Shown piece after piece: positions 9,238-63,498 of a stretch of DNA of 64,000 nt. The position numbers and the translations under genes were made by a program. Each line of letters begins with the position of its first letter. Position 1 is the stretch's first letter. The notes below the pieces were generated by a model. The model made no database searches. It was not told where the DNA came from and saw nothing but the letters and a program-made list of their open reading frames with translations. The stretch is from Patescibacteria group bacterium (GTDB lineage Bacteria; Patescibacteriota; Patescibacteriia; UBA2591; JAQUPP01), in assembly GCA_041649955.1 (NCBI GenBank), contig JBAZMD010000003.1:877-64876 (forward strand), given 5' to 3'.

Positions 9238-9360
9238 GTTACCCCCTCTTTTATCTCAACGATAAATTTTCGATAATCGTTAGGATAAAAGGCGAAGCCG
9301 CTTCACTTACGGAATATTGTAAAACGAAAGGCTCTCGATGGAGTAAAAGAGGGGGTGCTC
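9238..9360. repeat. Degenerate inverted-repeat element (family B-like: TACCCCCTCTTTTATCTC ... GAGTAAAAGAGGGGGTGCTC)
   Basis: Inverted termini seen directly; internal segment 'ataaaaggcgaagccgcttcacttacggaatattgtaaaacg' resembles internal segment of element at 29119-29245. Confidence 0.5.
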
Positions 9361-9427
9361 AAAAATCTAATAAAAAATTTGCTCCGCCGGTTGGCGGATC
9401 AAACTTGAATTTTTTAAAATTTTTGGC

Positions 9428-10102: not shown

Positions 10103-10233
10103 TAAGAGTACGTTGACAATTTAGATATTAGAAGCCTATTAATCTAAAAACATTAGTCTATTCAAACGCAAATCAAAGCGGGTAGCTAATCTGTTTCTTA
10201 ATTATAAATTTTGGATCAAATAATCTCTTTTAA

Positions 10234-11750
<1,517 letters not shown>

Positions 11751-11949
11751 AGAGGACTTATATTTTTTCTATTACTTTCGAGTAATAGAAAAATTAAGGT
11801 CGAAGGTTAGTTTACCCGCTTTGATTTGCGTTTTTAGAGCAAGAAAACCAGTTGACTTAACTGGTTTTTTTGTTTAGAATAAATAACAACTCCGACGCTT
11901 TGAAGGTCGGAGCCCCGACTGTAACGTCGGGGTGAGAATATTTAAAATA

Positions 11950-12112
11950 GGGGTTGACCCCCATACCTGAACGGCGATAAAATACTCAGTAACGTATTTT
12001 TAAATTTTTTTAAAAATAGAAATAAATTTTATAATTTAAAACAGATTAATCAAATAAAATGAACAATTTCTCGCATTTTAAAAATATATCGCCGTTTGGT
12101 GCGGGGGTTGAC
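11950..12112. repeat. MITE-like inverted-repeat element, family A (termini GGGGTTGACCCCCATACCTGAACGGCGAT / ATCGCCGTTTGGTGCGGGGGTTGAC, AT-rich core)
   Basis: Perfect/near-perfect 25-bp terminal inverted repeats in 16S-tRNA-Ile spacer. Confidence 0.6.
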
Positions 12113-16707: not shown

Positions 16708-17424
16708 TTGTCTAAATTTTCAAGTCCAACCATGAATTTCAAAATTTTAATAATTTCGGAAGATAAGGATTATTTGGTTATTGAGAAGCCAAGCGGATTA
16801 TTGGTGCATCCTACCAAATATCAGAAAGAAAATACCTTAGTGGATTGGCTGATTGAAAATTATCCTGAAATAAAGCAAATTGATGGAGGCGAAAGGCCTG
16901 GAATTGTTCATCGTTTAGACCAAAATGTTTCAGGGTTGATGATAATCGCCAGAAATCAAAAATCATTTGAATATTTTATTGATCAGTTTAAAAATAGCCG
17001 GGTTAAAAAAGAATATTTGGCTCTGGTTTGCGGACGGCCCGCTCAAGAAAAAGGAACAATTGAATTGCCGATCGGCCGGACAAAAAAAGGAAAATTAGTT
17101 GTTGTGCAATCTAGAAAAAAGATTAAAATTTCCAAGCCGGCAGTAACCGAATACGAAGTTGTTCAAAAATTTCCAAAATTTACTTTATTAAAACTCAGGC
17201 CGTTTACCGGCCGAACGCATCAGATTCGTCTTCATCTGCAATCAATCGGCTGTCCGATTGTCGGAGACAAACAGCACGGCAAAGCAAAAACTGATTTAGA
17301 CAGAATTTTTCTCCATGCCAGTTATCTGGGTTTTTACGACTTGAATAATCAATGGCAAGAATTTAAAAGCGATTTACCAGAAGAACTAAAGAGTTTTCTT
17401 GAAAATTTCAAAACTGAAAGTTGA
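16708..17424 (+). CDS. RluA-family 23S rRNA/tRNA pseudouridine synthase
   Basis: 'LVIEKPSGLLVHP', catalytic 'HRLDQNVSGLMIIARN'. Confidence 0.85.
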   Translation: MSKFSSPTMNFKILIISEDKDYLVIEKPSGLLVHPTKYQKENTLVDWLIENYPEIKQIDGGERPGIVHRLDQNVSGLMIIARNQKSFEYFIDQFKNSRVKKEYLALVCGRPAQEKGTIELPIGRTKKGKLVVVQSRKKIKISKPAVTEYEVVQKFPKFTLLKLRPFTGRTHQIRLHLQSIGCPIVGDKQHGKAKTDLDRIFLHASYLGFYDLNNQWQEFKSDLPEELKSFLENFKTES

Positions 17425-17596
17425 AGAAATTTTTACTAGAAAACCTTTACCCCGCATTAAGCCCGCTTATAGAAAATATAATAAGTCGCAATTAAGCCGC
17501 AGGCGATGCAGCGCGCAAAATTAATATTAAAAATTAAATTTTATTAAGCTTTGGTGCGCGGGTAACAAATTTTTTAAATAAAAAAGTGAGATAAAA

Positions 17597-19004: not shown

Positions 19005-19856
19005 TTACAGAGATTTTTTATAGACTTCCATAATTTCTCTCAACCGTTTTTCGTCAATGGCTGGCATTTCTATTCCCAAATTTTTGGCTTTTTGATTGGA
19101 TAAAACGCAATTGCTTCGTTTAGCGCTGGTAATATTATAAAGTTCATTCAAAGAAATTAATTCATATTGATGACTTGGATTGACTATTTCTTGATAGGCT
19201 TTGAGCATTTGTTCGTGGGTCAAATAATTGTCATTCACTAAATTTAAAATGCCAATCGGACGGATTTCGGCCAATTTAACCAAGGCCGGAAACATATCTT
19301 CAATTAAAGTCACGGAATTAGGTAAAGAAATAACTTTTTTATAAGAAATTATTTTATTAAGCAGATTGCGCGGATGAGAATGCATGGAAATCGGCATTCT
19401 GATTCTAAGTTGGAGAACGGGTAATTCTTTAAGCGCCATTTGCATCGCGACTCTCATTTGGGAATAAAAACTGCCGAAAAAATTCGGTTCATCTTCTTCG
19501 CTAAAAGGTGTTTCCGGCGTGCCGGAATAAATACAACCCGAAGCGATTTGGATCATAAAGCTTGACGCTTCCAGAGCGGCCAAAGCGACGTTAATCGCTC
19601 CCGCCACATTGACCGCCACAGTTTCTTGTTTATGAGTTTCACACCAATCAATATTCGGATAAGCTCTGACGCCGGCAAAATTAATCACCACATCAGGCTT
19701 GGTTTCCTGAAATTTTTTCTTTAAAGCCGGCAAATCGGTAATATCAATTCTTTCGCTGAAAACTTCAAAATTATTTTGTTTCAAATATTCCACGAATTTT
19801 CCGCCCATAAATCCGCTTGCCCCCAAAATATAAAAATTTGGTTTTTTATTTTCCAT
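19005..19856 (-). CDS. NAD(P)-dependent epimerase/dehydratase family protein (RmlD/dTDP-4-dehydrorhamnose reductase-like)
   Basis: N-terminal Rossmann 'ILGASGFMGGKF', short-chain dehydrogenase/epimerase architecture. Confidence 0.65.
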   Translation of the reverse strand: MENKKPNFYILGASGFMGGKFVEYLKQNNFEVFSERIDITDLPALKKKFQETKPDVVINFAGVRAYPNIDWCETHKQETVAVNVAGAINVALAALEASSFMIQIASGCIYSGTPETPFSEEDEPNFFGSFYSQMRVAMQMALKELPVLQLRIRMPISMHSHPRNLLNKIISYKKVISLPNSVTLIEDMFPALVKLAEIRPIGILNLVNDNYLTHEQMLKAYQEIVNPSHQYELISLNELYNITSAKRSNCVLSNQKAKNLGIEMPAIDEKRLREIMEVYKKSL

Positions 19857-19863
19857 ATTTGCT

Positions 19864-20005
19864 ATTATACCTATTTAAAATTTATTGGCAATCTTATAAT
19901 TTATTATCGGTATACTCATTTATACACAACAAAAGCATTGACAAAAAGCGGGGGGGGGTAAACTATAAGTAAGGTTAAAAATTAATTATTAACTTAATTT
20001 TTTTT
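19864..20005 (+). promoter_or_regulatory. Repeated upstream region copy 1: TTGACA-(19 nt incl. G9 tract)-TATAAG promoter-like + conserved 5' leader
   Basis: ~75 bp identical to 21120-21192 except G-tract length (9 G at 19950-19958); TTGACA at 19939-19944, TATAAG at 19964-19969. Confidence 0.55.
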
Positions 20006-21001: not shown

Positions 21002-21033
21002 AAAAAATAAGGGTTTAAACCCTTATTTTTTAT
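21002..21033 (+). terminator. Rho-independent terminator
   Basis: aaaaaataagggtttaaacccttatttttt hairpin + T-run. Confidence 0.65.
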
Positions 21034-21192
21034 TATACCTATCTGAAATTCGTTGGCAATCTTATAATTTATTCTCTGTGTACTCATTTTGTACGTATAG
21101 ACATCTTGATTTATCAATAACAAAAGCATTGACAAAAAGCGGGGGGGGTAAACTATAAGTAAGGTTAAAAATTAATTATTAACTTAATTTTT
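21033..21192 (+). promoter_or_regulatory. Repeated upstream region copy 2: TTGACA-(18 nt incl. G8 tract)-TATAAG
   Basis: G8 at 21141-21148; otherwise identical 75-bp core to copy 1; contains a 24-bp insertion relative to copy 1 in the 5' half. Confidence 0.55.
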
Positions 21193-24770: not shown

Positions 24771-25829
24771 ATGTTTGAAAACCAAAATGATTCAAATCCA
24801 AAAAACACTATAATTTTTAAAATAGACCCTTTGTCGGTGGTTAAAGTTGTTTTAGTTCTTCTGGGTTTTTGGTTTTTGTATTTTATCCGAGATATTATTT
24901 TTATGGTTTTAATCGCGGTTTTTTTGGCCGTGATTATTAATCCCACGGTTAATTTTTTTGAAAAAAGAAAATTCCCCCGCTGGCTGGGAGCCTTTATTAT
25001 TTATTTGATTATTTTTTTGATTTTGACCGGTCTTGGTTTTGCCGCTTGGCCGACTATTACAGAACAAGGTAAATTTTTTATTAATCAAGTTCCGGAATTT
25101 TTTCAATCAATTGTGGGAAAAATACCCGTAATGGCGCAGCAGCAATTCTTAAAAATCGGCAATCAATGGATGAATCAAAATTTTTTGGGAGATAATAATA
25201 TATTCTCTTTTTTAGGAGATATTATAGGACAAATTATTTCTTTATTTATGGTCCTAATAATATCTTTTTATTTATCCATTCAAAAGCGAACTTTTTATAA
25301 TTCTCTGAATTTAATGATTCCAAACAGATATCGCCATTTTTTTGAGCATTTTATGGCCTTAGCTCAAAAAGAAGTCAGTGCTTGGGTGAGGGGTCAATTT
25401 ATTATCTGTTTAATTATTGGTATTTTAACTTATATTGGTTTATTATTTTTGAAAATTAAATTTGCTTTAATCTTGGCTATTATTGCCGGATTATTTGAAA
25501 TTATTCCGTTTATCGGTCCTGTTTTAGCAGCGGTTCTGGCTGTAATTGTCGCTTTTGTTCAAGCACCGCTTTTAGGTTTATTAGTATTAATTTTTTATAT
25601 TATTGTCCAGCAAATTGAACGCATTATAATCTCTCCAAGCGTGATGTATAAGGTTATTGGTCTTAATCCGGCAATGGCTTTAATAGTGGTATTAATTGGG
25701 GGTAAATTAGCCGGTGCGATTGGAATGATTATTTCCATCCCGATTGCCACGGTTATCAGCATTTTAATCCGCGATTATTTTAAAGAAAAAAGAGAAGTTG
25801 AACTTGAAGAAAAAAATTTAAAAGCGTAA
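24771..25829 (+). CDS. AI-2E family transporter (PerM/UPF0118 permease)
   Basis: 8-TM topology and typical AI-2E family sequence pattern. Confidence 0.75.
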   Translation: MFENQNDSNPKNTIIFKIDPLSVVKVVLVLLGFWFLYFIRDIIFMVLIAVFLAVIINPTVNFFEKRKFPRWLGAFIIYLIIFLILTGLGFAAWPTITEQGKFFINQVPEFFQSIVGKIPVMAQQQFLKIGNQWMNQNFLGDNNIFSFLGDIIGQIISLFMVLIISFYLSIQKRTFYNSLNLMIPNRYRHFFEHFMALAQKEVSAWVRGQFIICLIIGILTYIGLLFLKIKFALILAIIAGLFEIIPFIGPVLAAVLAVIVAFVQAPLLGLLVLIFYIIVQQIERIIISPSVMYKVIGLNPAMALIVVLIGGKLAGAIGMIISIPIATVISILIRDYFKEKREVELEEKNLKA

Positions 25830-25841
25830 ATATTATTTATT

Positions 25842-26849
25842 ATGTTTTCTAAAAAAATCGGTATAGATTTAGGGACGGCCAATATCTTGGTTTATGTGCA
25901 AGGAAGAGGTATTGTTACTGATGAACCGTCAGTGGTGGCGATTTCTACTGTTGATAACAGTGTTTTAGCTGTTGGCGACGAAGCCAAGGCAATGATCGGC
26001 CGTACTCCTGATTCAATTGTGGCGAAAAAACCCTTGAAAGACGGCGTGATTGCGGATTACAAAACAACCGAAGCCATGTTAAGATATTTTATCGGCAAAG
26101 CAATCGGACGTTTTCGTCTTTTCAGGCCGGAAGTTATGGTGGCAGTGCCGGGTGGCATTACTTCAACTGAACGAAGAGCGGTAATTGACGCGACTATGGC
26201 CGCCGGCGCTCGAGCGGCTTATATTATTAAAGAACCAATTGCTTCGGCTATTGGCGCGAATATTCCCATTGGTTCGGCTTCAGGGCATATGATTGTTGAC
26301 ATGGGTGGAGGAACAACTGAATCAGCTGTCATATCTTTAGGCGGAATTGTTGCTTCAACTTCCATCAGAGTGGCAGGAAATAAATTGGACGCGGCAATTA
26401 TGGTCTTTATTAGAAAAAAATATAATTTAGCAATTGGCGAAAGAACAGCTGAAGATATTAAAATTAGAGTTGGTTCCGCTTTGCCATTAGAAAAAAAATT
26501 AAAAATGGATATTAAAGGCAGAGATATGATTACCGGTTTGCCGAAAATTATTACCATTGATTCTGATGATATAACCGAAGCTATTCAAGATGAACTTAAT
26601 GCTATTGTTTCAGCAATAAAATCCGTGCTTTATGAAACTCCACCCGAATTGGCGGCTGATATTATGGAAAAGGGCATGGTTCTATCCGGAGGCACGGCTT
26701 TGATCAGAAATATAGATAAACTTTTTACCCAGGTTACCGGCGTGCCGGCTTATGTAGCCGAAGAACCACTGCTTTGCGTGGCTCGAGGAACAGGCATAGC
26801 CTTGGAGAATTTGGATTCTTATAAAAAGAGTCTTATGGCAATGAAATAA
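25842..26849 (+). CDS. mreB: Rod shape-determining protein MreB
   Basis: '[14 protein letters not shown]', 'VDMGGGTTE', actin-fold motifs. Confidence 0.9.
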
Positions 26850-26902
26850 AGGGCTTTCTTCAAATTTTAGAGTCCGGTAGGACGAATAAAATTTGATTAG
26901 AA

Positions 26903-27052
26903 AACCTTTACCCCCTCCTTTTGAGTGCTTTTAAATTCATATATAAAGACTTAATAAAGAAAGAGAGACAATTCTAAAATATAAAAGTTAGTTATCTTAA
27001 ACAACGGATTTAAAGGAGTACTGAAAGCATCTAAAAGGAGGGGGTACTCAAA
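26903..27052. repeat. Family-B inverted-repeat element, 'empty' copy (~150 bp, no ORF)
   Basis: Termini 'AACCTTTACCCCCTCCTTTTGAGTGCTTTT' and 'GGAGTACTGAAAGCATCTAAAAGGAGGGGGTACTCAAA' match (in reverse orientation) both ends of the GIY-YIG-containing element at 29758-30050. Confidence 0.65.
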
Positions 27053-27111
27053 ATTATAGTAAAATTTCCTTCTCCGCCAGCCGGCGGATCTAAAATTTTA
27101 ATAATTTTGGT

Positions 27112-28221
27112 ATGGTTATCGGTATTGATGCTTCGCGGGCAAATCGTCCGCAAAAAACAGGCGTTGAGTGGTATTCTTACCATTTGATTCAAGAATTTAA
27201 AAAAATCCCTCTGCCTCAGGGGGATAAATTTATTTTATACGCGCCGGAAAAACTAAAAGGCGACTTGGGAATTATGCCGGCCGGCTGGAAAGCTCAAATT
27301 TTATCTTGGCCTTTGAAATATTTTTGGACTCAAAAGAGATTGTCTTGGGAAATGTTGATTAATCCGCCGGATATTTTATTTGTTCCGGCTCATTGTTTGC
27401 CTGTTTTCTGCCGAGCCAAAAAAATAATGACCATTCACGATTTGGGATTCAAGCGTTTTCCGAAAGCTTATACTTTTGGGCAGAGAATTTATTACTCAAT
27501 GGTTCATTCTTTCGCCGCCAAATATGCCGACAAAATTATCACCCCGTCGGAATTTACAAAAGCAGAAATAATAAATTTATATAAAACAGATCCGAATAAA
27601 ATAGTCGTTATTCCCTTGGGATATAATAAATATTATAATTTAGTTGAAGATAAAAATAAAATAGAAGAAATTTTAACCAAATATCAGATTAAAAAGCCTT
27701 ATCTTTTTTTTGTCGGCCGGTTGGAGAAAAAGAAAAATATCAAAGGATTGGTTGATGCCTATCAGCAGCTTTTAAAACAAAATTATTCTTTGCAATTGGT
27801 TCTCGCCGGAAGTCCGGGATTCGGTTATCAAGAGGTAAAATCCCAAATTAAATCTTTGAGAGAAAAAATTCGTCAGATTAATTATGTTGAACCGAAAGAT
27901 TTGGTTTATTTGTATGCTAGCGCAGAAGCATTCATTTTCCCTTCTTTTTATGAAGGTTTTGGTATTCCTTTACTTGAAGCAATGGCTTGTGGCTGTCCGA
28001 TTGTTGCCTCAAATCAGGGTTCTTTGCCAGAAGTTGCTCAAGATGCGGCCTTGTATTTTGACCCCAGAAATTCCTTGCAAATGGTTGAAGCGATAAAAAG
28101 AATAATTAATGAGCAAGATTTAAGAAAAGAATTAATAGAAAAAGGATTGGCCAGAGTGAAAGAATTTTCTTGGCAAAAATGCGCTGAAAAAACTTTTAAA
28201 ACATTTAAAAATATAATTTAA
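27112..28221 (+). CDS. Glycosyltransferase family 4 (GT1-fold, retaining)
   Basis: C-terminal 'FPSFYEGFGIPLLEAMACGCPIVASN' EX7E-type motif. Confidence 0.85.
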   Translation: MVIGIDASRANRPQKTGVEWYSYHLIQEFKKIPLPQGDKFILYAPEKLKGDLGIMPAGWKAQILSWPLKYFWTQKRLSWEMLINPPDILFVPAHCLPVFCRAKKIMTIHDLGFKRFPKAYTFGQRIYYSMVHSFAAKYADKIITPSEFTKAEIINLYKTDPNKIVVIPLGYNKYYNLVEDKNKIEEILTKYQIKKPYLFFVGRLEKKKNIKGLVDAYQQLLKQNYSLQLVLAGSPGFGYQEVKSQIKSLREKIRQINYVEPKDLVYLYASAEAFIFPSFYEGFGIPLLEAMACGCPIVASNQGSLPEVAQDAALYFDPRNSLQMVEAIKRIINEQDLRKELIEKGLARVKEFSWQKCAEKTFKTFKNII

Positions 28222-28226
28222 AAAAT

Positions 28227-28949
28227 ATGAAAATACTTAAAGATGCCGGAAGTTTTGTAATTTTAACGCCTGAAGAAAATTTGAAATCGCAATTATTAAC
28301 CATTGAAAGAGCAGGGAGAACTTGTTATCAATCAGTTGCTCAAGAAATTACTCAAGAAACAGCGGAAAAATTCGTTAAAATGATTTTAAAACTCGGGCAT
28401 GAAAGCGTGATGGAGCACAGTTTGATGATTGTTCAATTTAATGATTGTTCCCGCGGTTTGACTCACGAATTGGTTCGCCATCGCATAATGGGTATTTCTC
28501 AAGAATCAACTCGTTATGTGGATTATGCCAAACCGGGAGCGGAAGTGGATTTGGAAAAATTTGAATTAAAATGCGTTGTCCCGGCTCATAAAGATGAAAA
28601 TGAAAAAGTGAAATTAGCTGACGGACGGGAAATGTCCATGGCCGAAATGCTTCAAGAAACGGAAAATTTTTATCGAGGCTTGAGAAAAGCGGGTTGGCTG
28701 CCGCAAGATGCCAGACAAATTTTGCCTACGGCGATTAAATCGCAAATTGTTGTTTCGGCGAATTTTCGCGAGTGGCGGCATATTTTTAAAATGCGAACTG
28801 CCAGGCCGGCTCATTGGGAAATCAGAGAGGTATTAGGGAAATTATTGGAAAAATTAAAAACGATTATTCCGGTTGTTTTTGAAGATTTTGTGGAAGCGGG
28901 TAAAGACGAAAATGGATTAAAATATTTTGAAAAAATCTCTCGCTCATAA
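28227..28949 (+). CDS. thyX: Flavin-dependent thymidylate synthase
   Basis: ThyX signature 'HELVRHRIMGISQESTRYV' (RHRx7S). Confidence 0.85.
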   Translation: MKILKDAGSFVILTPEENLKSQLLTIERAGRTCYQSVAQEITQETAEKFVKMILKLGHESVMEHSLMIVQFNDCSRGLTHELVRHRIMGISQESTRYVDYAKPGAEVDLEKFELKCVVPAHKDENEKVKLADGREMSMAEMLQETENFYRGLRKAGWLPQDARQILPTAIKSQIVVSANFREWRHIFKMRTARPAHWEIREVLGKLLEKLKTIIPVVFEDFVEAGKDENGLKYFEKISRS

Positions 28950-28958
28950 TAATAAAAC

Positions 28959-28996
28959 AAAAAATGACGATTATAAAGTTGTAATCGTCATTTTTT
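28959..28996 (+). terminator. Rho-independent terminator
   Basis: aaaaaatgacgattataaagttgtaatcgtcatttttt. Confidence 0.7.
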
Positions 28997-29011
28997 GTTT
29001 GGAATAAAATA

Positions 29012-29085
29012 CGGTCCGGACGGGGCTCGAACCCGCAACCTCATCCGTGACAGGGATGCGATCTAACCAGTTGATCTACCGGACC
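29012..29085 (-). tRNA. tRNA-Asp (anticodon GTC), no encoded CCA
   Basis: Reverse complement folds: acceptor ggtccgg/ccggacc, anticodon loop ctGTCac, T-arm gcgggttcgagcccc. Confidence 0.85.
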
Positions 29086-29118
29086 ATTGAAATTATTATA
29101 TCAATTTTTTATTTCTTG

Positions 29119-29245
29119 GCAAGCCCCCACACCAAACTTGTCGTTAATCTTACGAACAAGAAGGTATAAAGGCAAAGCCGCTTCGCTTTTATAATTTTGT
29201 ATAATAGAACTTCTGCGTTGAGTTGTGGTGTGGGGGCAAGCCCCC
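29119..29245. repeat. MITE-like element family A (termini GCAAGCCCCCACACCAAAC / GTTGTGGTGTGGGGGCAAGCCCCC)
   Basis: Terminal inverted repeats seen directly; 20 bp upstream of tRNA-Asp 5' end. Confidence 0.6.
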
Positions 29246-29297
29246 AAAAACAAATACTGCTCTTATAAAAAGGAAGCAGTATTTGTTTTTAAAGGTA

Positions 29298-29645
29298 TTA
29301 TTTTTTTATGGATTTAACCAATTCGGTGAAAACTTTCGGATAATTGCAAGCCAAGTTAGCCAAAGTTTTTCTGTCCAATTCTATTTTATTCTTTTTCAAA
29401 TCGTCAATAAATTTGGAATAAACAGTTCCGTTCTCTCGGCAACCGGCATTGATTTTAATCAACCATAAAGATCGGGCTGTTCTTTTCTTAACTTTTCTGC
29501 CTTGATAAGCGAAATTACCGGCTCTCCAAAGAGCGATTTTAGCTAATTTAAATTTATTTTTTCGGCCCCATTTAAAACCCTTTGCTTCTTTAAGTACATT
29601 TTTTCTTCTTTTAAGATGGGCCAGACCGCGTTTTACTCTAGGCAT
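29298..29645 (-). CDS. rplT: 50S ribosomal protein L20
   Basis: 'MPRVKRGLAHLKRRKNVLKEAKGF...ARSLWLIKINAGCRENG' canonical L20. Confidence 0.9.
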   Translation of the reverse strand: MPRVKRGLAHLKRRKNVLKEAKGFKWGRKNKFKLAKIALWRAGNFAYQGRKVKKRTARSLWLIKINAGCRENGTVYSKFIDDLKKNKIELDRKTLANLACNYPKVFTELVKSIKK

Positions 29646-29757
29646 ATACCAAATTTTTTAACCCAGCATTTTAAATATTTAGCCGGGGGATTTATTAAAT
29701 TTATTATTATTTCCTTTAATATATTATTAATCGTATAAAGAGCTGGGTTATTTAAAA

Positions 29758-30050
29758 TTTGAGTACCCCCTCCTTTTAGATGCTTTCAGTACTCCTTTTA
29801 ATTCGTTTTTTAAGATAACCCCAAGCACTTTTATATTTTTTAAGCTGTTTTTCTCGTTCCATTGCGTCTTTTTTATCTTGGTAGGCTTCATAATATATTA
29901 AGCCTAAAATTTGTTTCTCGCGTTGGTGGGTTTTAATTCTTTTCTTCAAGTCCGTAGAGAAACCAACATATATCGTTTCATTCGGTAATTTGACTAGATA
30001 GACATAATACATAAGTTCAAAAGCACTCAAAAGGAGGGGATAAAGGTTTT
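29758..30050 (-). mobile_element. Family-B TIR element carrying a GIY-YIG nuclease gene, inserted between rpmI and rplT
   Basis: Termini match the empty element at 26903-27052; internal ORF is GIY-YIG. Confidence 0.65.
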
Positions 30051-30078
30051 GTTGCTCCGACTTAACGTCCGGAGACAA
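29776..30078 (-). CDS. Small GIY-YIG nuclease family protein (true start probably Met at ~30012, 'MYYVYLVKL')
   Basis: 'YYVYLVKLPNETIYVGFSTDLKKRIKTHQ' = GIY-YIG motif block; ORF-track N-extension is encoded by the element's inverted-repeat terminus. Confidence 0.75.
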   Translation of the reverse strand: MSPDVKSEQQNLYPLLLSAFELMYYVYLVKLPNETIYVGFSTDLKKRIKTHQREKQILGLIYYEAYQDKKDAMEREKQLKKYKSAWGYLKKRIKRSTESI

Positions 30079-30084
30079 AACTCT

Positions 30085-30264
30085 TTAAATATAACTTTTA
30101 ACAGTTTTGGCGTAAGTTTTATAAACAGATTTATCAGATCTTTTATTTTTAGTTTTACTGCCTTTTTCTCGAGCATTAAAATGATCCTGCCCGCAAGTTT
30201 TATGCACGACCTTGCCAGTTTTCGTTAATCTGAATCTTTTGACAATTGCTTTATTTGTTTTCAT
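30085..30264 (-). CDS. rpmI: 50S ribosomal protein L35 (59 aa; below ORF-track size cutoff)
   Basis: Translation 'MKTNKAIVKRFRLTKTGKVVHKTCGQDHFNAREKGSKTKNKRSDKSVYKTYAKTVKSYI'; ATG overlaps infC stop (ATGA); classic infC-rpmI-rplT order. Confidence 0.8.
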   Translation of the reverse strand: MKTNKAIVKRFRLTKTGKVVHKTCGQDHFNAREKGSKTKNKRSDKSVYKTYAKTVKSYI

Positions 30265-30770
30265 ATATTTTTTTTAACAACTAAGGCGCTAATTCTGCCG
30301 CCCTGTCTTTTAAGCGGTTGTTCTATTATAATATTTTCTCCTAAAAGTTCAATAAATTGTTTGATTAATTTTTCGGCCAAATCAGCGTGTAATTTTTCTC
30401 GGCCGCGCAGAAATAATTCCACTTGAACCTTATGGCCTTCGGCTATGAATTCTTTGGCTTTTTCCACTTTAAGCTCCAAATCATGCTGGCCGATGCGAGA
30501 ACTTAATCTGATGCCTTTAACGCCGCCTGATTTTTGCAGTTTTCTTTCTTTCTTTTGTTTTTTAAGCAAATTGTATTTAAACTGGCTGAAATCTACAATC
30601 TTGGCAATCGGAGGATCGGCAGTTGGATCAAGTTCCATTAAATCCAACCCTTTTTCACGGGCTGATTCAAGGGCTTTTGAAGTTTCTAAAGTGCCGACAT
30701 TTACGCCGTTCTCATCAATTAGGCGAACTTTGAGGGCAGTTATTTGTTTGTTTGTACGATAAAATTTCAC
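30261..30770 (-). CDS. infC: Translation initiation factor IF-3 (GTG start)
   Basis: 'ITALKVRLIDENGVNVGTLETSKALESAREKGLDLMELDPTADPPIAKIVDFSQFKY' canonical IF-3; first codon GTG at 30768-30770. Confidence 0.9.
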   Translation of the reverse strand: MKFYRTNKQITALKVRLIDENGVNVGTLETSKALESAREKGLDLMELDPTADPPIAKIVDFSQFKYNLLKKQKKERKLQKSGGVKGIRLSSRIGQHDLELKVEKAKEFIAEGHKVQVELFLRGREKLHADLAEKLIKQFIELLGENIIIEQPLKRQGGRISALVVKKNI

Positions 30771-30784
30771 GATTTAAAAATTAT

Positions 30785-30915
30785 TTATTTAATGGTGTCC
30801 CAGTACCAAAATCCGAACAAAAGTTGTGATAAGATAGAATTGGAAACACGGTGCTCGCCTGCGGCTAATTTCATCTTATCATATAGTTTGCCGAGAGATT
30901 TGCTACGGGACACTC
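30785..30915 (-). promoter_or_regulatory. Structured leader upstream of infC (candidate L20-binding autoregulatory leader)
   Basis: Long nested helix: GGTGTCCCAGTAC...(GATAAGAT...ATCTTATC)...GCTACGGGACAC, lies between tmRNA 3' end and infC start. Confidence 0.4.
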
Positions 30916-30948
30916 AATTTTCTAGTCCCGCTTTAGCGGGAAGAAAAT

Positions 30949-31326
30949 TGGTGGAGATGGCGGGTACTTCCCCCGCGTCCGGGAAAATTATAGATAAAAA
31001 CGTTTACCTTCATTTTTCAGTTATTTTCTTGATTAAAAAGTGATAACTGAACAAAACCTTTTTAATCAGAGCTTGATTTTGGTTTTCGGAAAATCCAGAC
31101 AAGCAACTGGATTAACTTATCCGATAATATAATACGTCATGATTCGAGCATCGGCACTGTAAATCCTAACGGCTACAGCGTTAAGCTATAGCAAAGTTTA
31201 AATTTGTGTTGGCATTTATATCTGCCGTAGAAAATTAACGTATTTCTGATTTATTTCCTATTAAAAAATAGGAATGTACGGAAGGTAATTTTTATCCAAA
31301 TCAACCGTCAATTTTTGAGCATCCCC
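30949..31326 (-). ncRNA. ssrA: tmRNA (SsrA), one-piece, ~378 nt, tag peptide ANTNLNFAIA
   Basis: Minus-strand 5' GGGGAUG pairs with 3' CAUCUCC (G3:U wobble) + ACCA; 3' end 'ggacgcgggggaagtacccgccatctccacca' aligns with E. coli 'GGACGCGGGUUCAACUCCCGCCAGCUCCACCA'; internal ORF gcc aac aca aat tta aac ttt gct ata gct TAA; upstream consensus TTGACA-16-TATAAT promoter (31373-31400, minus). Confidence 0.85.
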
Positions 31327-31391
31327 ATAAAATTATTTGCAATGGAGATCTTTTTAAAGATCAATATTAGATATTATATACCTTTTAAATT

Positions 31392-31548
31392 AAATGTCAA
31401 CCCCGTAGAACAACTTTGACCTCTCTTTTAATTGCGGGTAATAAATAGGCAAAATATAATAAAGTAATCTACTTTTAACTTAAAGATTAGTAAATTTAAC
31501 CGAGAGTAAGCAATTGTCAAAGTTAATCTACGGGGTCAAGGTCTTTTT
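31392..31548. repeat. Inverted-repeat element (termini GTCAACCCCGTAGAACAACTTTGAC / GTCAAAGTTAATCTACGGGGTCAAGG)
   Basis: ~26-bp terminal inverted repeats; left end overlaps tmRNA -35, right end overlaps smpB stop region. Confidence 0.5.
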
Positions 31549-31975
31549 GTTCTCGTCTTTTATAATCCCGTTCTTTAATGGCTTCGCGCTTGTCCCATTG
31601 TTTTTTTCCTCGCGCCAAGCCGCATTCTATTTTTACGAGGCCGCCTTTGGTATAAACTTTAAGGGGAATAAGCGTCACTCCTTTCACTTTCATTTTTCCG
31701 ATTAAAGTTCTGATTTCCTTTTTTTTGATCAATAATTTTCTAGTATGAGTCGGATTATAATTTTGCTGGACATTAAAAGCGGGAGGGTAAGGCGAGATAT
31801 GGACATTGATTAATTCTAATGCTCCTTGATTATTAATTGAAACATATCCGCCGGTTAAATTTATTTTTCCGTATTTTGCGGATTTAACTTCCGGCCCAGT
31901 CAAAATAATTCCGGCTTCAAAGGTCTCCAGAATTTCATAATTGAAATAGGCTTTTTTATTGGTGGCGATGATCAT
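31523..31975 (-). CDS. smpB: SsrA-binding protein
   Basis: 'KKAYFNYEILETFEAGIILTGPEVKS' canonical SmpB N-terminus. Confidence 0.9.
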   Translation of the reverse strand: MIIATNKKAYFNYEILETFEAGIILTGPEVKSAKYGKINLTGGYVSINNQGALELINVHISPYPPAFNVQQNYNPTHTRKLLIKKKEIRTLIGKMKVKGVTLIPLKVYTKGGLVKIECGLARGKKQWDKREAIKERDYKRREQKDLDPVD

Positions 31976-32077
31976 AAGAGTATTGTAGCATATTGAGTTT
32001 AATATGAGAATATGCTATATTAAATTTAAGTGATTGTGTTATAATATTATTATATTATATTTTTATGCGCATTGGTA

Positions 32078-32127
32078 TTGATTGCCGTCCCAGTACTAGA
32101 TTCGCCGGTAGGCAAATCAGTACGGGA
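32078..32127. promoter_or_regulatory. Palindromic hairpin/operator-like element GTCCCAGTAC-N22-GTACGGGAC in smpB/glycosyltransferase divergent promoter region
   Basis: Shares both 9-10-nt arms with the infC leader helix (30795/30902). Confidence 0.4.
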
Positions 32128-32191
32128 CATCGCTTTGTTGAAAGATAAGAGAAAGTAAATTTAGATTAATGAGATTTAACCGAAAAAATTT

Positions 32192-33349
32192 ATGAGAATA
32201 GGCATAGACGCTCGAACAATTTTAAACCCGGAAAAAAATATTGGAGGCGGAGTTGGCCATTATATTTATCAATTGGTCAAGCATTTGCTTAAAATAGACA
32301 AAAAAAATACTTATGTTCTGTTTTTTGACCGCTCGGTTCAAAAACGCCGCTTAGCCAAATTTAAACAGAGTAATGTTTTAATCAGATTTTTTCCGTTTGT
32401 TCAATACACCAGATTAATGCCCAAATCATACACTAATTTTTTGATCAGCGCTTATTTAAACAAAGAAGAGCTTGATGTTTTCCATTCTCCGACTTTGGCT
32501 TTGCCATTTTCTTATAAAAAACCATGCGTAGTAACAGCTCATGATTTGGCGATTTATAAATTCCCGGAACTTTATTCCGATAAACACAATGTTTTATCAA
32601 AAACCGAGATTCCAACCGCCATTAAAGAAGCTAAAAAAATTATTACCGCCAGCCATTCTACGGCTAAAGATATTCACGAAATTTTCGGGACTTCTATTGA
32701 TAAAATTAAAGTGGTTCTTCATGGTTTGGATGAAAGATTTTTTGAAAAACAATCCGAAGAGAGCATTAAAAAAATTAAATCCAAATACGGCATTAAAAAA
32801 GATTATTTGCTTTTCCTAGGGACTCTTGATTTGAGGAAGAATATTATTCGTATTATTTCGGCCTATGAAAGATTGAGAGAAAAAATGAAATCCAATTCTT
32901 TGCCTGATATTCAATTGGTTTTGGCCGGCGCCAAAGGATTTAAATTCCATGATATTGAAAAGAAAATTTCAGCTTCAAAATATAAAAAAGACATTATTTT
33001 GCCCGGATATATTGCCGCTGATGATCTTAATCCGCTTTTCGGAGGAGCTGAAGTTTTTGTTTTTCCTTCATTTTATGAAGGGTTCGGTTTGCCGATTCTT
33101 GAAGCAATGGCCAATGGCGTCCCGGTTGTCGCTTCCAATATCTCTGCTATGCCAGAAACAGCCGGCGGTCATGCAATTTTGGTTGATTCATACGATGTTT
33201 CTCAAATCAGCGACGCCGTTTATCGCTTATTGACTAATAAAGAATTAAGAGATAAACTAAGTGAAGAAGGCAGACAATACGCTCAAAAATTCAATTGGGA
33301 TAAAACGGCTGAGGAGACATTAAAAATTTATTATCAAGCGAGTGAGTGA
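32192..33349 (+). CDS. Glycosyltransferase family 4
   Basis: 'FVFPSFYEGFGLPILEAMANGVPVVASN'. Confidence 0.85.
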   Translation: MRIGIDARTILNPEKNIGGGVGHYIYQLVKHLLKIDKKNTYVLFFDRSVQKRRLAKFKQSNVLIRFFPFVQYTRLMPKSYTNFLISAYLNKEELDVFHSPTLALPFSYKKPCVVTAHDLAIYKFPELYSDKHNVLSKTEIPTAIKEAKKIITASHSTAKDIHEIFGTSIDKIKVVLHGLDERFFEKQSEESIKKIKSKYGIKKDYLLFLGTLDLRKNIIRIISAYERLREKMKSNSLPDIQLVLAGAKGFKFHDIEKKISASKYKKDIILPGYIAADDLNPLFGGAEVFVFPSFYEGFGLPILEAMANGVPVVASNISAMPETAGGHAILVDSYDVSQISDAVYRLLTNKELRDKLSEEGRQYAQKFNWDKTAEETLKIYYQASE

Positions 33350-37220: not shown

Positions 37221-37387
37221 TCGTCAACCCCCACACCAAACGGCGATTTGTATTTTTTTAAATACGAAATTATTTAATTCTGTATTTAAGATTACTTATT
37301 TATTTGTCTAAAATTTATCTTATTTCGAAAATCCAAAAAATACAAAAATTGAGCATTTATCGCCATTCTGGTGTGGGGGTCAAGCCC
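37221..37387. repeat. MITE-like element family A (termini CGTCAACCCCCACACCAAACGGCGAT / ATCGCCATTCTGGTGTGGGGGTCAAGCCC)
   Basis: Near-perfect 26-bp TIRs, AT-rich ~110-bp core, between ACP-like operon and ileS. Confidence 0.6.
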
Positions 37388-45544: not shown

Positions 45545-45550
45545 ATTTTT

Positions 45551-45570
45551 TTGGAGCGGGCTCCACCACC
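45551..45570. repeat. Solo copy of family-A left terminus (TTGGAGCGGGCTCCACCACC)
   Basis: Identical 20-mer again at 45851-45870; the two copies bracket the GIY-YIG gene. Confidence 0.55.
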
Positions 45571-45578
45571 AATATGTT

Positions 45579-45878
45579 TTACATTAAGCTTTTTTCTATT
45601 CTAATTTTAAGCTGATGATAAACCCGACTATATTTTTTTAATCGAGACTCTCTTTGTTTAGCGTCTTCTCTAGATTTATATGATTCGTAATAAATTATTT
45701 CAAATGGACGTCTCGGTTTAGTCGCTTTAACTAATCCTTTATTATGTTCAATAAAACGTTTTTTTAAATCGTCAGTAAAACCAATGTATAATTTTTTATC
45801 TTTTTTACTTTTCAATAAATATACATAAAACATAATCAGTTGGAAATTTTGGAGCGGGCTCCACCACCTGAATGGCAA
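45579..45878 (-). CDS. Small GIY-YIG nuclease family protein (true start likely Met 'MFYVYLLKS' ~45833)
   Basis: 'FYVYLLKSKKDKKLYIGFTDDLKKRFIEHNKG' GIY-YIG block; ORF-track N-terminus 'MPFRWWSPLQ' is read from the inverted-repeat terminus. Confidence 0.75.
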   Translation of the reverse strand: MPFRWWSPLQNFQLIMFYVYLLKSKKDKKLYIGFTDDLKKRFIEHNKGLVKATKPRRPFEIIYYESYKSREDAKQRESRLKKYSRVYHQLKIRIEKSLM

Positions 45879-46002
45879 TGTATTTTTTATAAATGCGAAA
45901 TCATTGCTTCTAATAAATAAATCTATATTTTTTTTCTTTATAATCTAATCTTTTTCAAAAATACATAACAAGCATTTATTGCCATTCTGGTGGTGGAGCG
46001 GG
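45851..46002. repeat. MITE-like element family A variant (GAGCGGGCTCCACCACCTGAATGGCAAT / ATTGCCATTCTGGTGGTGGAGCGGG), right end overlapping tRNA-Trp 3' end
   Basis: TIRs seen directly; right terminus contains tRNA-Trp acceptor 3' strand + CCA. Confidence 0.55.
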
Positions 46003-46067
46003 TAAGGGGAGTCGGACCCCTGTCAACAGCTTGGAAAGCTGTGGTAATACCGTTATACGATACCCGC
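45997..46067 (-). tRNA. tRNA-Trp (anticodon CCA)
   Basis: rc folds: acceptor gcgggta/tacccgc, anticodon loop ttCCAag, T-arm aggggtccgactcccct; 3' 'tCCA' present within the repeat. Confidence 0.75.
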
Positions 46068-46164
46068 CTGCGCTTTTTGCAAAAAGCTTCGGCGGGCAGG
46101 CCCGCTTTAGCTTTCCGTTTTAAAATTTGACTATGCCCCGTATCCGCCAGCTGGCGGAAAAGGA

Positions 46165-51502: not shown

Positions 51503-51763
51503 ATGTTTTTTGTTTATATTTTAAAAAGCTCTAAAAATAAATGGTTTTATATCGGGTCAACTTCAGATTTAAATAAAAGATTAGAAGAACATAATTTAGG
51601 AAAAGTTGTTTCTACTAATTTTTATCGACCATTAAAATTAATTTATTACGAAGCTTATTTTTCTGAAAAAGACGCAAGACATCGTGAACATAATTTAAAG
51701 TTAAAATCTAGAGCTTTTGTTCAATTAAAAAAGAGACTTAAGAGTACATTAGAAAATATATAA
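51503..51763 (+). CDS. Small GIY-YIG nuclease family protein
   Basis: 'MFFVYILKSSKNKWFYIGSTSDLNKRLEEHN' GIY-YIG block. Confidence 0.8.
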   Translation: MFFVYILKSSKNKWFYIGSTSDLNKRLEEHNLGKVVSTNFYRPLKLIYYEAYFSEKDARHREHNLKLKSRAFVQLKKRLKSTLENI

Positions 51764-51780
51764 AATTTAATTATCTTTAA

Positions 51781-51900
51781 GAGGCGTGCCTCCACACCAA
51801 ACGGGAGTGGAGAAAATAAATAATATTTTAACGGCATAATCTATAAAGGTAAATATACGGGAGATAAATATAATATCCCCGTTTGGTGTGGAGGCGTGGC
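51781..51900. repeat. MITE-like element family A (GAGGCGTGCCTCCACACCAAACGGGAG / CCCCGTTTGGTGTGGAGGCGTGGC), right terminus overlapping tRNA-Ser 5' end
   Basis: TIRs seen directly; last 10 nt = tRNA-Ser acceptor 5' strand. Confidence 0.55.
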
Positions 51901-63212: not shown

Positions 63213-63498
63213 CTTATCTTGTAAAATTTTAAATCCCGAGTTTATCGAGGGAGTAGAAAATTTCAAGACAAGATAAAGAACCCTGTTAAATCCCGCGGAG
63301 CGGGAATTTCGCCAGAGGCGAAATTATTTAACAGGGTGAGCGAAACTCTAGTAAAATTTTATTCGTCTTTCAGACTCTAAAATTTTGAGAGTTTCCTCAG
63401 TACTTTGACAATTTAATAATCGAAAATAGAAATAGAGTAATGTATCAATATCGTCCAATTTAAATTAAAGTAAGTTTTTTCACAAAATATTTTTTGTG

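Follow-up and report, generated by a model that had tools for sequence, protein, structure and literature searches.

Three small genes for GIY-YIG nucleases, called GIY1, GIY2 and GIY3 below, were analysed in a 64,000-nucleotide (nt) stretch of low-GC DNA (about 35%) from a Patescibacteria group bacterium (GenBank assembly GCA_041649955.1, contig JBAZMD010000003.1, positions 877 to 64,876), referred to here as the window. GIY1, which lies at the junction between rpmI and rplT, is read as belonging to a family of very compact mobile cassettes, found in Patescibacteria, whose sole gene encodes a GIY-YIG nuclease of 78-86 amino acids, a reading to which we assign a probability of roughly 65%. A preliminary description of the window, made from the sequence letters, had proposed mobile miniature elements, and this is essentially right: an empty and a filled site, copies at unrelated loci and derivatives without an open reading frame (ORF) were all found, but the unit around GIY1 is larger than had been described and GIY3 lacks a repeat of its own. 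The unit of GIY1 is termed B-type and that of GIY2 A-type, and labels such as L001, L042 and L053 denote the contigs that were compared with the window. The three genes and the parts of the B-type unit are placed as follows.

29776-30012, minus strand: GIY1, 78 amino acids, between rpmI and rplT (Pfam PF01541, 43 bits, E=5e-11).
45579-45833, minus strand: GIY2, 84 amino acids, A-type lineage (PF01541, 64 bits, E=2e-17).
51503-51763, plus strand: GIY3, 86 amino acids, with a promoter-like and terminator-like upstream flank (PF01541, 61 bits).
30085-30264: rpmI.
29298-29645: rplT.
29648-30084, minus strand: whole B-type unit, from the rpmI stop to the rplT start, absent from L042 and from 25 other rplT loci of the candidate phyla radiation (CPR).
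30042-30084, minus strand: 5' hairpin module HP1, directly after the rpmI stop, conserved in position and with compensatory stem changes at unrelated loci.
30020-30041, minus strand: 5' inverted-repeat arm ATCCCCTCCTTTTGAGTGCTTT, near-invariant across copies whose ORFs are synonymously saturated.
29765-29786, minus strand: 3' inverted-repeat arm AAAGCATCTAAAAGGAGGGGGT, which holds the GIY1 stop codon, placed by the end pattern and the alignment of copies.
29648-29764, minus strand: 3' module (ACTCAAATTT ... AAATTTGGTAT), which ends at the rplT ATG and whose head and tail are conserved in other copies.

As had been noticed before, GIY1 sits between rpmI and rplT and interrupts the infC-rpmI-rplT operon. 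The spacer between both genes measures 436 nt in the window (29648-30083) and 18 nt in the sister contig L042, where it reads TAA-AAAATAATTTAAAAAAAT-ATG within the empty junction TATATTTAA-AAAATAATTTAAAAAAAT-ATGCCTAGAG. No GIY-YIG match was found between rpmI and rplT at any of the 25 other CPR rplT loci, in which the two genes were close together wherever both could be detected. The comparison of filled and empty sites that the preliminary description had proposed therefore gave an empty site in the sister and in all 25 loci. Because of the 18-nt spacer of L042 and the absence of an insert from the 25 loci, the unit between rpmI and rplT is a derived insertion.

From 5' to 3', the inserted material is made up of the hairpin module HP1, one arm, the ORF, the second arm and a 3' module of ~115 nt, and the empty site of L042 contains no pre-existing repeat. 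Terminal inverted repeats around GIY1 do exist, but their arms (29764-29786 and 30020-30042) are about 23 nt long and 83% complementary, and not 35 bp as first described; likewise, the inserted unit measures about 420 nt by comparison with L042 and fills the whole spacer, and is not an element of ~290 bp. The 22-nt end pattern of this repeat family (family B) occurs four times in the window, against 0.03 expected. A near-universal operon in a reduced genome thus tolerates the insertion of GIY1, probably because the unit fits exactly from stop to start codon and in the direction of transcription.

The sister contig L042 was found solely by a degenerate scan for the arm pattern in JGI metagenome contigs. 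It is collinear with window positions 25292-32241 at 90-96% nucleotide identity, and its proteins are 99% (RplT), 93% (RpmI) and 95% (InfC) identical to those of the window. The relatives of RplT belong without exception to Patescibacteria/CPR, with best matches of 60% identity among GTDB representatives and 70% in a large protein database, and only L042, the near-identical strain contig L001 and the own record of the source metagenome-assembled genome (MAG) exceed 70%. Among GTDB representatives and through RplT homologues, no sister genome closer than 60-70% was found. L042 also carries an additional 862 nt with a 278-amino-acid ORF (its positions 2530-3391) between tRNA-Asp and thyX, which is missing from the window.

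B-type copies were found at many other places. For relatives of GIY1 with 72-100% amino acid identity, the neighbouring genes are unrelated (rpiB/dnaG, pfkB/PTAC, pilus-related genes and others; for the close relatives P0002 and P0004 the contexts were taken from gene tables), and the B-type copy of L053, at a different locus, shows 98% nucleotide identity over 333 bp. These loci have no common flanking homology. The flanking repeats, which had been described as possibly mobile, are hence neither unique to the window nor syntenically fixed, and the same cassette recurs with its ends at unrelated loci elsewhere.

Arm-anchored alignments gave one order of parts in every B-type copy. The 5' side consists of an upstream stop codon, AG(A/G)G(T/C)TTT, a variable hairpin with compensatory changes and ACAAAACCTTT, followed by the 5' arm ACCCCCTCCTTTTGAG(T/C)GCT and the ORF. 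After the ORF come the 3' arm (G/A)AGC(A/G)TCTAAAAGGAGGGGGT and a 3' module in which (A/G)CTCAAWWTTCTAGTAAAATTT leads into a hairpin of variable sequence and then CTAAAATTTTAATAATTTTGGT, up to the start codon ATG of the downstream gene. Starts of the TTGGTAT(AT)G or TTGGTATG type occur in the window solely at two B-type 3' ends. In the copies for which flanks were available, the flanking ORFs were co-directional with the unit in 10 of 10 cases upstream and 10 of 10 downstream.

When GIY1 was compared with its counterparts in L028, L030 and L050, synonymous sites were near saturation (proportion of synonymous differences, pS, 0.6-0.78), and the ratio of nonsynonymous to synonymous rates (dN/dS) was 0.07-0.25. 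By these codon comparisons the GIY1 ORF is under purifying selection, and both the protein and the ends are under selection, because such ratios go together with arms that are near-invariant despite the synonymous saturation.

The following B-type or B-like derivatives without an ORF lie in the window.

26850-27111, plus strand: ORF-less B-type copy between mreB and a glycosyltransferase gene, with HP1, both arms, an ORF remnant and the 3' module.
9241-9356, plus strand: B-like palindrome bounded by ACCCCCTCTTTT / AAAAGAGGGGGT, with a B-type 3' module behind it, 86% identical to a copy in L053.
17384-17453, plus strand: solo HP1 module with the first bases of the 5' arm, a remnant with 85% identity to HP1 of another copy.

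The first of them (26901-27062) matches the ends of the GIY1 unit over 72 nt at 90% and over 51 nt at 84%, and L042 has its orthologue. A gene-less copy near 26903-27052 had been described as a pair of bare termini; the copy is real, but it holds more than termini, and since the final ~100 nt of the ORF are still in place it is best taken as a deletion derivative. The degenerate copy proposed near 9238-9360 corresponds to the hairpin at 9241-9356, which has related ends, and the terminus remnant proposed near 17440 is the module at 17384-17453. Together with copies on other contigs, a series of decay can be laid out, from the copy at 26850-27111 and its orthologue through a derivative of 130 nt with ORF remnants (L040), another that retains ATGTATTACGTAT (L046) and a 64-nt hairpin (L033/L035) to the 5' end alone (L038/L049).

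The B copies of the window lie on the plus strand at 9241 and 26910 and on the minus strand at 29765, so that their orientation tracks local transcription. This argues for reliance on read-through, or for polar effects being selected against, and not for a rule of replication strand. The strain contig L001 stops exactly at the element; over its positions 1-320, compared with window 29776-29810, it shows four single-nucleotide polymorphisms (SNPs) in the last 30 nt of GIY1, identical to those of the L053 copy. These common SNPs suggest either several copies per genome with conversion between them, or mixing during assembly.

The preceding results bear directly on the possibility that these are ordinary repair-type UPF0213 genes beside repeats that serve as terminators, processing stems or regulatory RNA structures, with nothing mobile involved. 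Stand-alone bacterial SLX1-like genes have been treated as vertically inherited repair genes (Dunin-Horkawicz 2006, PMC1564403), yazA of B. subtilis overlaps its neighbours in a conserved trmNF-yazA-rsmI cluster, and all the palindromes fold stably. The genes of Firmicutes, however, stand in that conserved, overlapping housekeeping cluster without repeats, whereas the CPR genes are cassette-borne and at variable loci. Presence and absence between sister contigs, absence from the 25 relatives, one cassette at unrelated loci and the existence of ORF-less remnants are all contrary to vertical repair genes; in addition, no T-runs come after the hairpins on the transcribed strand, for which reason terminators were discarded as an explanation of the palindromes, and no element matched an Rfam family. 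We consider this alternative very improbable.

All three genes were found at the positions first given for them, intact, single-domain and above the curated PF01541 cut-off (43, 64 and 61 bits, respectively, against 22.6). Residues Y5, Y16, G18, R26, H30 and E62 are invariant in 40 aligned family members including GIY1-3, so that the catalytic Tyr of the GIY motif, the Tyr of the YIG motif, the Arg, the His and the metal-binding Glu are all kept. The true starts had been placed at the methionines of M(F/Y)YVY, and the homologues agree, as every protein in the 40-member alignment starts in this way. Longer, TTG-initiated versions of the ORFs (100 and 99 amino acids) consequently run into the flanking repeats, from which their additional N-termini are read.

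The likeness to UPF0213 proteins was also upheld. When a profile of the family was compared with the PDB, the nearest solved relatives were UPF0213 proteins (1zg2, E=3.5e-13; 1ywl, 8e-9) and an SLX1 homologue (6e-5), ahead of I-TevI (2e-3) and UvrC (0.02). An AlphaFold2 model of GIY2, with a mean confidence score (pLDDT) of 97, has the GIY-YIG alpha/beta fold, and its top Foldseek matches were the UPF0213 structure 1zg2 and Slx1 nuclease domains (TM score about 0.65-0.69). The UPF0213/SLX1-like proteins (YazA, YhbQ; 1zg2, 1ywl) are thus the best matches in sequence and fold, with the same minimal domain and the same catalytic residues. The NCBIfam model TIGR01453 covers residues ~3-39 only, at 20-25 bits against a cut-off of 56. 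GIY1-3 end straight after the catalytic domain, and a C-terminal DNA-binding domain of the I-TevI/Seg type is absent. The sole ORF of the cassettes therefore encodes a GIY-YIG hydrolase, and none of the recognised transposase classes (DDE, DEDD, HUH, Ser, Tyr) is present. Judged by profile and fold, GIY1-3 are single-domain GIY-YIG nucleases of the UPF0213/SLX1-like/Ssn-like group.

A second lineage, the A type, is represented by GIY2, whose surroundings contain the following features.

45994-46067, minus strand: tRNA-Gly(UCC), the A-type insertion target, located with ARAGORN.
45549-45578, minus strand: right end of the GIY2 element, formed by the arm AACATATTGGTGGTGGAGC (gene strand) and a duplicated tRNA-Gly 3' end, CCGCTCCA, with the same layout in L057 and L059.
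45847-45999, minus strand: ORF-less A-type palindrome from tRNA-Gly to GIY2, with arms GCTCCACCACC(A/T)GAATGGCAAT (fold z = -6.3).

The core of the family A repeat, GTTTGGTGYGGRGG, occurs five times in the window against 0.02 expected, and the A-type end sequence is GGTGGTGGAGCCCGCTCCA; family A is the terminal repeat of this second lineage. The inverted repeats of A-type copies are 11-22 nt long (14-22 nt in the GIY2 relatives beside tRNA-Gly), share the core CC(C)CAC(A/C)CCA, abut the start and stop codons and are significant at z = 7-14. A tRNA-Gly lies immediately 5' of the GIY2-type ORF in five neighbourhoods (the window, L055/L056, L057/L058, L059 and L066/L067) that are otherwise unrelated and in which the anticodon is UCC, GCC or CCC. 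At these loci both codons that bound the ORF, start and stop, fall within the repeat, as do the final 6 nt of the tRNA, and a copy of the tRNA-Gly 3' end stands after the element. L057, for instance, reads ...ACCCGCTCCA, then CCACTTAT-ATG...TAA-AACATTTAGGTGGTGGAGC, then CCGCTCCA, and in L059 the inverted repeat is perfect over 22 nt, GCTCCACTACCAATATGTTTTA / TAAAACATATTGGTAGTGGAGC (z = 14).

In the window the far arm of the palindrome at 45847-45999 includes the last 6 nt of tRNA-Gly, and the counterpart of this arrangement is found in L055/L056 and L066. The order in the window, L055 and L066 is the same: tRNA-Gly, ORF-less palindrome, duplicated tRNA end, GIY ORF, right arm and duplicated tRNA end. 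Because of this order, the perfect 22-nt direct repeat at 45549-45570 and 45847-45868 is taken to represent the right ends of two tandem insertions into a regenerated target. Family A copies at 45551 and 45851 had been seen to bracket GIY2 as left ends; the direct repeats are real, but they are right ends joined to the duplicated tRNA-Gly 3' end.

A-type elements insert at tRNA-Gly 3' ends, or just after or inside the 3' ends of genes, and the target end that they displace is duplicated. More distant members have this frame at sites without a tRNA. L060 reads TAA, then CCCCCCACCACTTTTT-ATG...TAA-AAAGTGGTGGGGGG, and L064, from an Endomicrobiia MAG, reads ATCCCCACACCAATTACT-ATG...TAA-TTGGTGTGGGGAT, where the repeat CCCCACACCAA equals the core of the A-type palindrome ends of the window (CCCCCACACCAAAC / GTTTGGTGTGGGGG). 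The L064 element stands between a methyltransferase-like gene and a SIR2-like gene. About 60 nt of the C-terminal end of the upstream gene, which is M.Eco57I-like, are repeated after the element (1190-1640) with 76% identity, in the same reading frame and with the stop codon, as though the element had supplied the target gene with a restored or replacement end.

This site preference is also what would be expected of classical free-standing homing endonuclease genes, in which a double-strand break is repaired by recombination from the filled allele. The palindromes would then be targets and not derivatives; the break would fall at a tRNA-Gly 3' end, in a palindromic repeat or at the end of a gene, with the ends and ORF-less repeats acting as homology arms. 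T4 Seg and I-TevI enzymes resemble the present proteins in their catalytic domain, in their selfish insertion between conserved genes, in site specificity and in decay of the ORF after invasion. Strict specificity of the A type for tRNA-Gly 3' ends, the diverged replacement copy of the target end beside the L064 element (as in co-conversion or target restoration), the mixture of ORF-bearing, ORF-decayed and ORF-free B-type copies, which fits a cycle of gain, decay and loss, and the four clustered SNPs common to copies at different loci, which suggest gene conversion, all agree with homing. Characterised GIY-YIG homing enzymes such as I-TevI require a DNA-binding domain, however, and the enzymes of this kind have 200-250 amino acids with that domain at the C-terminus, whereas the proteins described here, of 78-86 amino acids, have none and are covered by TIGR01453 over their first ~30 residues only. 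Homing also acts at allelic sites through flanking homology, and brings neither terminal inverted repeats nor gene-less derivatives; the empty rpmI-rplT site held no repeat beforehand and the B-type loci share no flanks. On this evidence homing is an unlikely account of the cassettes, although it is more plausible for the tRNA-Gly lineage and for L064.

The remaining palindromes of the window are listed with GIY3.

51781-51898, unstranded: A-type palindrome between GIY3 and tRNA-Ser (fold z = -6.6).
29124-29245, unstranded: A-type palindrome A(i), which abuts the -35 box of the tRNA-Asp promoter (promoter match 11/12), absent from L042 (fold z = -4.2).
37227-37380, unstranded: A-type palindrome in a divergent intergenic region, by core matches.
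11950-12108, unstranded: A-type palindrome between the 16S rRNA gene and tRNA-Ile, by core matches.
31407-31544, unstranded: family C palindrome with arms ACCCCGTAGAACAACTTTGACC / GTCAAAGTTAATCTACGGGGT, between smpB and the tmRNA gene, absent from L042.

GIY3 had been described as directly abutting a family A repeat. It does adjoin an A-type palindrome on its 3' side, with 18-nt arms (51788-51805 and 51878-51895) that are 100% complementary and of which the right one takes in the first 6 nt of tRNA-Ser, but it has no clear repeat of its own; upstream of it lie a terminator-like hairpin and a good -35/-10 pair. GIY3 is apparently an immobilised A-type relative. ORF-less palindromic derivatives are frequent, with about 10 in 64 kb, and all the palindromes fold into long terminal stems. 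They are short and non-coding and have termini in common with ORF-bearing elements (for the A core, in L064, L060 and L057), so the derivatives likened earlier to miniature inverted-repeat transposable elements exist for both types, for the A type by their ends only.

At the A-type junctions, candidate target-site repeats of 2-4 nt (CC, AA/CAAG, CA/TCAA, AC/CACG, AT) are followed by the first 4-6 nt of the element again. Both 29124-29245 and 31407-31544 are present in the window and absent from L042. The L042 counterpart of the A(i) site lacks the CCCCC expected from the window junction, and the family C site keeps the first 6 nt of the element, as a deletion would leave. The palindromes were also seen to cluster near tRNA, rRNA and tmRNA genes. 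By eye, the interiors at 9286-9320 (B-like) and 29165-29200 (A(i)) have a common core, AAGGC(A/G)AAGCCGCTTC(A/G)C, with different ends.

Some further readings of the repeats were discarded. The motif GTTTGGTGYGGGGG, which is followed three times by TTGAC, was not upheld as a promoter motif, as the -35 box belongs to the target and is kept in the element-free L042; its remaining copies stand directly beside a tRNA or have no gene in front of them, and the repeats are better read as element ends that landed beside -35 boxes. A derivation of A-type interiors from deleted GIY ORFs was dropped, as will be seen below from the alignment scores. HP1 as an inverted 3' module reached z = 4.8 in one copy and was not significant in eight others, and a candidate promoter within the B-type 3' module (9/12 matches) was no better than shuffled sequences.

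Among known systems, the finding is best filed with the Ssn-like kind, that is, a small GIY-YIG nuclease plus hairpin repeats. Ssn enzymes are single-domain GIY-YIG proteins of 94 amino acids. They bind the hairpin repeats on either side of their genes and cleave only single-stranded DNA (ssDNA), on one strand, next to the repeat; the authors of that work described the repeat-gene-repeat layout as insertion sequence (IS)-like, with mobility given as a hypothesis only (Chenal et al. 2025, Nat Commun, PMC11893778). The likeness lies in the single domain (~80-100 amino acids there, 78-86 here) and in hairpin repeats that are dispersed and also stand on both sides of the gene, as is true of GIY1 and GIY2, and on the 3' side only for GIY3. 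The repeats themselves differ: the window repeats ACCCCCTCCTTTT... and CCCCCACACCA... do not match the published NTS/SRM consensus CGTCATTCCCGCGMAVGCGGGAATCYRG (the consensus, not the degenerate SRM motif), a CGTC-tagged ATTCCCGCG...GCGGGAAT. Unlike in Ssn systems, the A-type ORF lies inside one long inverted repeat that holds its start and stop codons, and the B-type ORF lies between arms with extra modules; the A type is specific for the tRNA-Gly 3' end, and filled and empty sites show gene and repeats moving as a unit.

As a proxy for the Ssn family, an SRM-flanked homologue from Azospirillum was retrieved by tblastn with GIY2. In A. lipoferum plasmid AZO_p3 (L077, 1377-1889) a GIY-YIG gene of 97 amino acids interrupts sufB-sufC and has on either side two inverted copies of CGTCATCCCCGCGAAGGCGGGGATCCAG, a sequence equal to the published NTS/SRM consensus. 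The protein is 37% identical to GIY2. With the CPR profile it scored 60.0 bits, and the UPF0213 protein YazA of B. subtilis scored 60.6; on these scores the CPR proteins are homologous to both the Ssn-type and the UPF0213 groups, which the profile rates equally.

The same comparison raises the possibility of a domesticated, Ssn-like host system that restricts or modulates incoming ssDNA or recombination, in which the repeats spread otherwise and the insertions are side effects. In Neisseria, NTS repeats and SsnA modulate transformation, which sets a precedent. The promoter-like flank of GIY3 and its lack of an inverted repeat are compatible with such a role, so that for GIY3 the reading keeps some standing, and the clustering of palindromes near tRNA, rRNA and tmRNA genes also agrees with it. 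The strong purifying selection on the ORFs would fit as well, but it is equally expected of an element that needs its nuclease. Against a host function, the ORF moves with its repeats as a unit, into an essential operon and many unrelated loci, and several copies of the ORF have decayed, which is unexpected of a required host gene. As a general explanation it is quite unlikely.

For the cassette family we infer by analogy that the nuclease drives the movement. It would recognise its own ends, probably as hairpins in ssDNA, in the manner of Ssn enzymes, and would cut at these ends and at similar target sequences. To our knowledge GIY-YIG enzymes only hydrolyse, so that host replication or repair would have to complete any move, copying or rejoining the element after cutting. 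ORF-less copies might be decayed or mobilised in trans. Transcripts of the host operon or of the tRNA might read through into the ORF and so express it, and the strict co-orientation would then be accounted for. I-TevI makes 2-nt staggered cuts, and the candidate 2-nt duplications (CC, AA, AT, CA, AC) would fit cuts of this sort, although the junctions are not clean. In its fullest form, which we put forward only tentatively, the proposal is that the cassettes move autonomously and form a class of mobile elements that has so far gone unrecognised in bacteria: 0.29-0.44 kb in length, with a minimal nuclease that recognises its own hairpin ends in ssDNA, the help of host replication and repair, gene-less palindromes, and one lineage that homes to tRNA-Gly 3' ends.

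Several results weigh against mobility as set out here. Since GIY-YIG enzymes, as far as we know, cannot ligate, the nuclease alone would be no usual transposase. B-type mobility is read from sequence comparison, and no clean target-site duplication was found in the comparison with the L042 site. B-type units abut stop and start codons exactly, a precision that no insertion mechanism known to us predicts, and their orientation fits selection or read-through as well as a strand-specific mechanism. GIY3 has no significant inverted repeat of its own. The interiors of the A-type palindromes gave no alignment above z = 3 with GIY ORFs; without this similarity, their derivation from ORF-bearing copies is drawn from the ends. 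The A(i) and family C polymorphisms could be deletions in L042 or insertions in the window, and the pattern of A-type junctions is incompletely explained by the empty sites of L042.

Other small mobile systems resemble the cassettes in part. REP/REPIN-RAYT and IS200/IS605 systems likewise combine a small gene with palindromic repeats, dispersed gene-less palindromes in intergenic regions (a comparison drawn partly from PMC11893778) and probable recognition of single-strand hairpins. They differ in their enzyme, an HUH tyrosine transposase that passes through a covalent intermediate and joins the DNA again, whereas the present enzyme is a GIY-YIG hydrolase, and in being at least 0.7 kb long, against 0.29-0.44 kb for the CPR cassettes. 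In the same phylum, GIY-YIG ORFs have been reported in short insertions of CPR rRNA genes, which are not introns and show no classical homing spread (Tsurumaki et al. 2024, PMC11270868). These too lie in or next to stable-RNA genes, but within 16S and 23S genes, and no inverted-repeat ends, gene-less derivatives, tRNA-Gly targeting or operon insertions were described for them. A report of 2025 listed GIY-YIG genes among horizontally transferred genes of Patescibacteria. A literature search found no description of bacterial GIY-YIG cassettes bounded by inverted repeats, or of tRNA-Gly targeting.

Further observations concern the RNA genes and other repeats of the window, which has, besides the genes below, one tmRNA gene and ten tRNA genes.

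10228-11750: 16S rRNA gene.
63510 onwards, within the window to 64000: 23S rRNA gene.

Both rRNA genes are unlinked here, more than 50 kb apart with many protein genes between them. The 3' end of the 16S rRNA (11733-11755) reads GGATGGAACACCTCATTTAGAGG, with an anti-Shine-Dalgarno core of CCTCA where CCTCC is expected, and Shine-Dalgarno (SD) sequences of the GGAGG type are absent from most genes of the window. Mimicry of the anti-SD by the B-type arm (CCCCTCCTTTT / AAAAGGAGGGGG) was rejected, since the host 16S ends in ...ACACCTCATTT, a non-canonical anti-SD; the arm was also rejected as an SD of its neighbour, as no start codon follows it at SD distance. A scan of viral contigs gave a single chance SD-like match. 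Ahead of the 23S gene, at 63281-63388, lies a further palindrome (ACCCTGTTAAAT...ATTTAACAGGGT) with a B-like 3' module after it; it shows 83% similarity to part of L053, and the hairpin in its loop, ATCCCGCGGAGCGGGAAT, is similar to the dRS3/NTS core known from Ssn repeats. After tRNA-Pro (46143-46158) and after two B-type copies (27069-27084 and 9387-9402) stand hairpins with the sequence TCCGCC-NNNN-GGCGGA, probably a host type of terminator without a long T-run. Elsewhere in the window, a region of ~150 nt upstream of two neighbouring genes is duplicated (19853-20002 and 21021-21192, 86-99% identical) and contains a run of 8-9 G.

GIY-YIG ORFs between repeats were also noticed on two other contigs. 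In L006 (1256-1760), from a different CPR genome, such an ORF lies between ~70-nt direct repeats of a tRNA-Asp-like 5' part, beside an intact tRNA-Asp. In L022 (2755-3200) it lies immediately upstream of infC, with 35-nt direct repeats each carrying a hairpin (CTTCGCTCTGCTTCGCAGAGCTTCGAATGGCA).

Beyond prior work, the present analysis adds natural filled and empty sites, a unit of gene plus repeats at many loci, a decay series and a new architecture of the ends, as well as a target that can be named, the 3' end of tRNA-Gly genes. Proteins of the UPF0213/Ssn type, with a single GIY-YIG domain, are very widespread and for the most part unexplained. A general role as cassette nucleases would matter because the family is large, with 6,621 cluster representatives of the UPF0213/Ssn-like group at E<=1e-10 (27,178 at E<=1e-3). 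If the nuclease does drive movement, it would define a new, extremely small kind of mobile element and one origin of the many palindromic repeats that streamlined CPR genomes contain, and would offer paired nucleases and recognition sequences for ssDNA tools. If, in addition, the cassettes are autonomous, they would be the smallest self-mobilising DNA elements known, and the UPF0213/Ssn-like group would have gained a biological role in at least some lineages.

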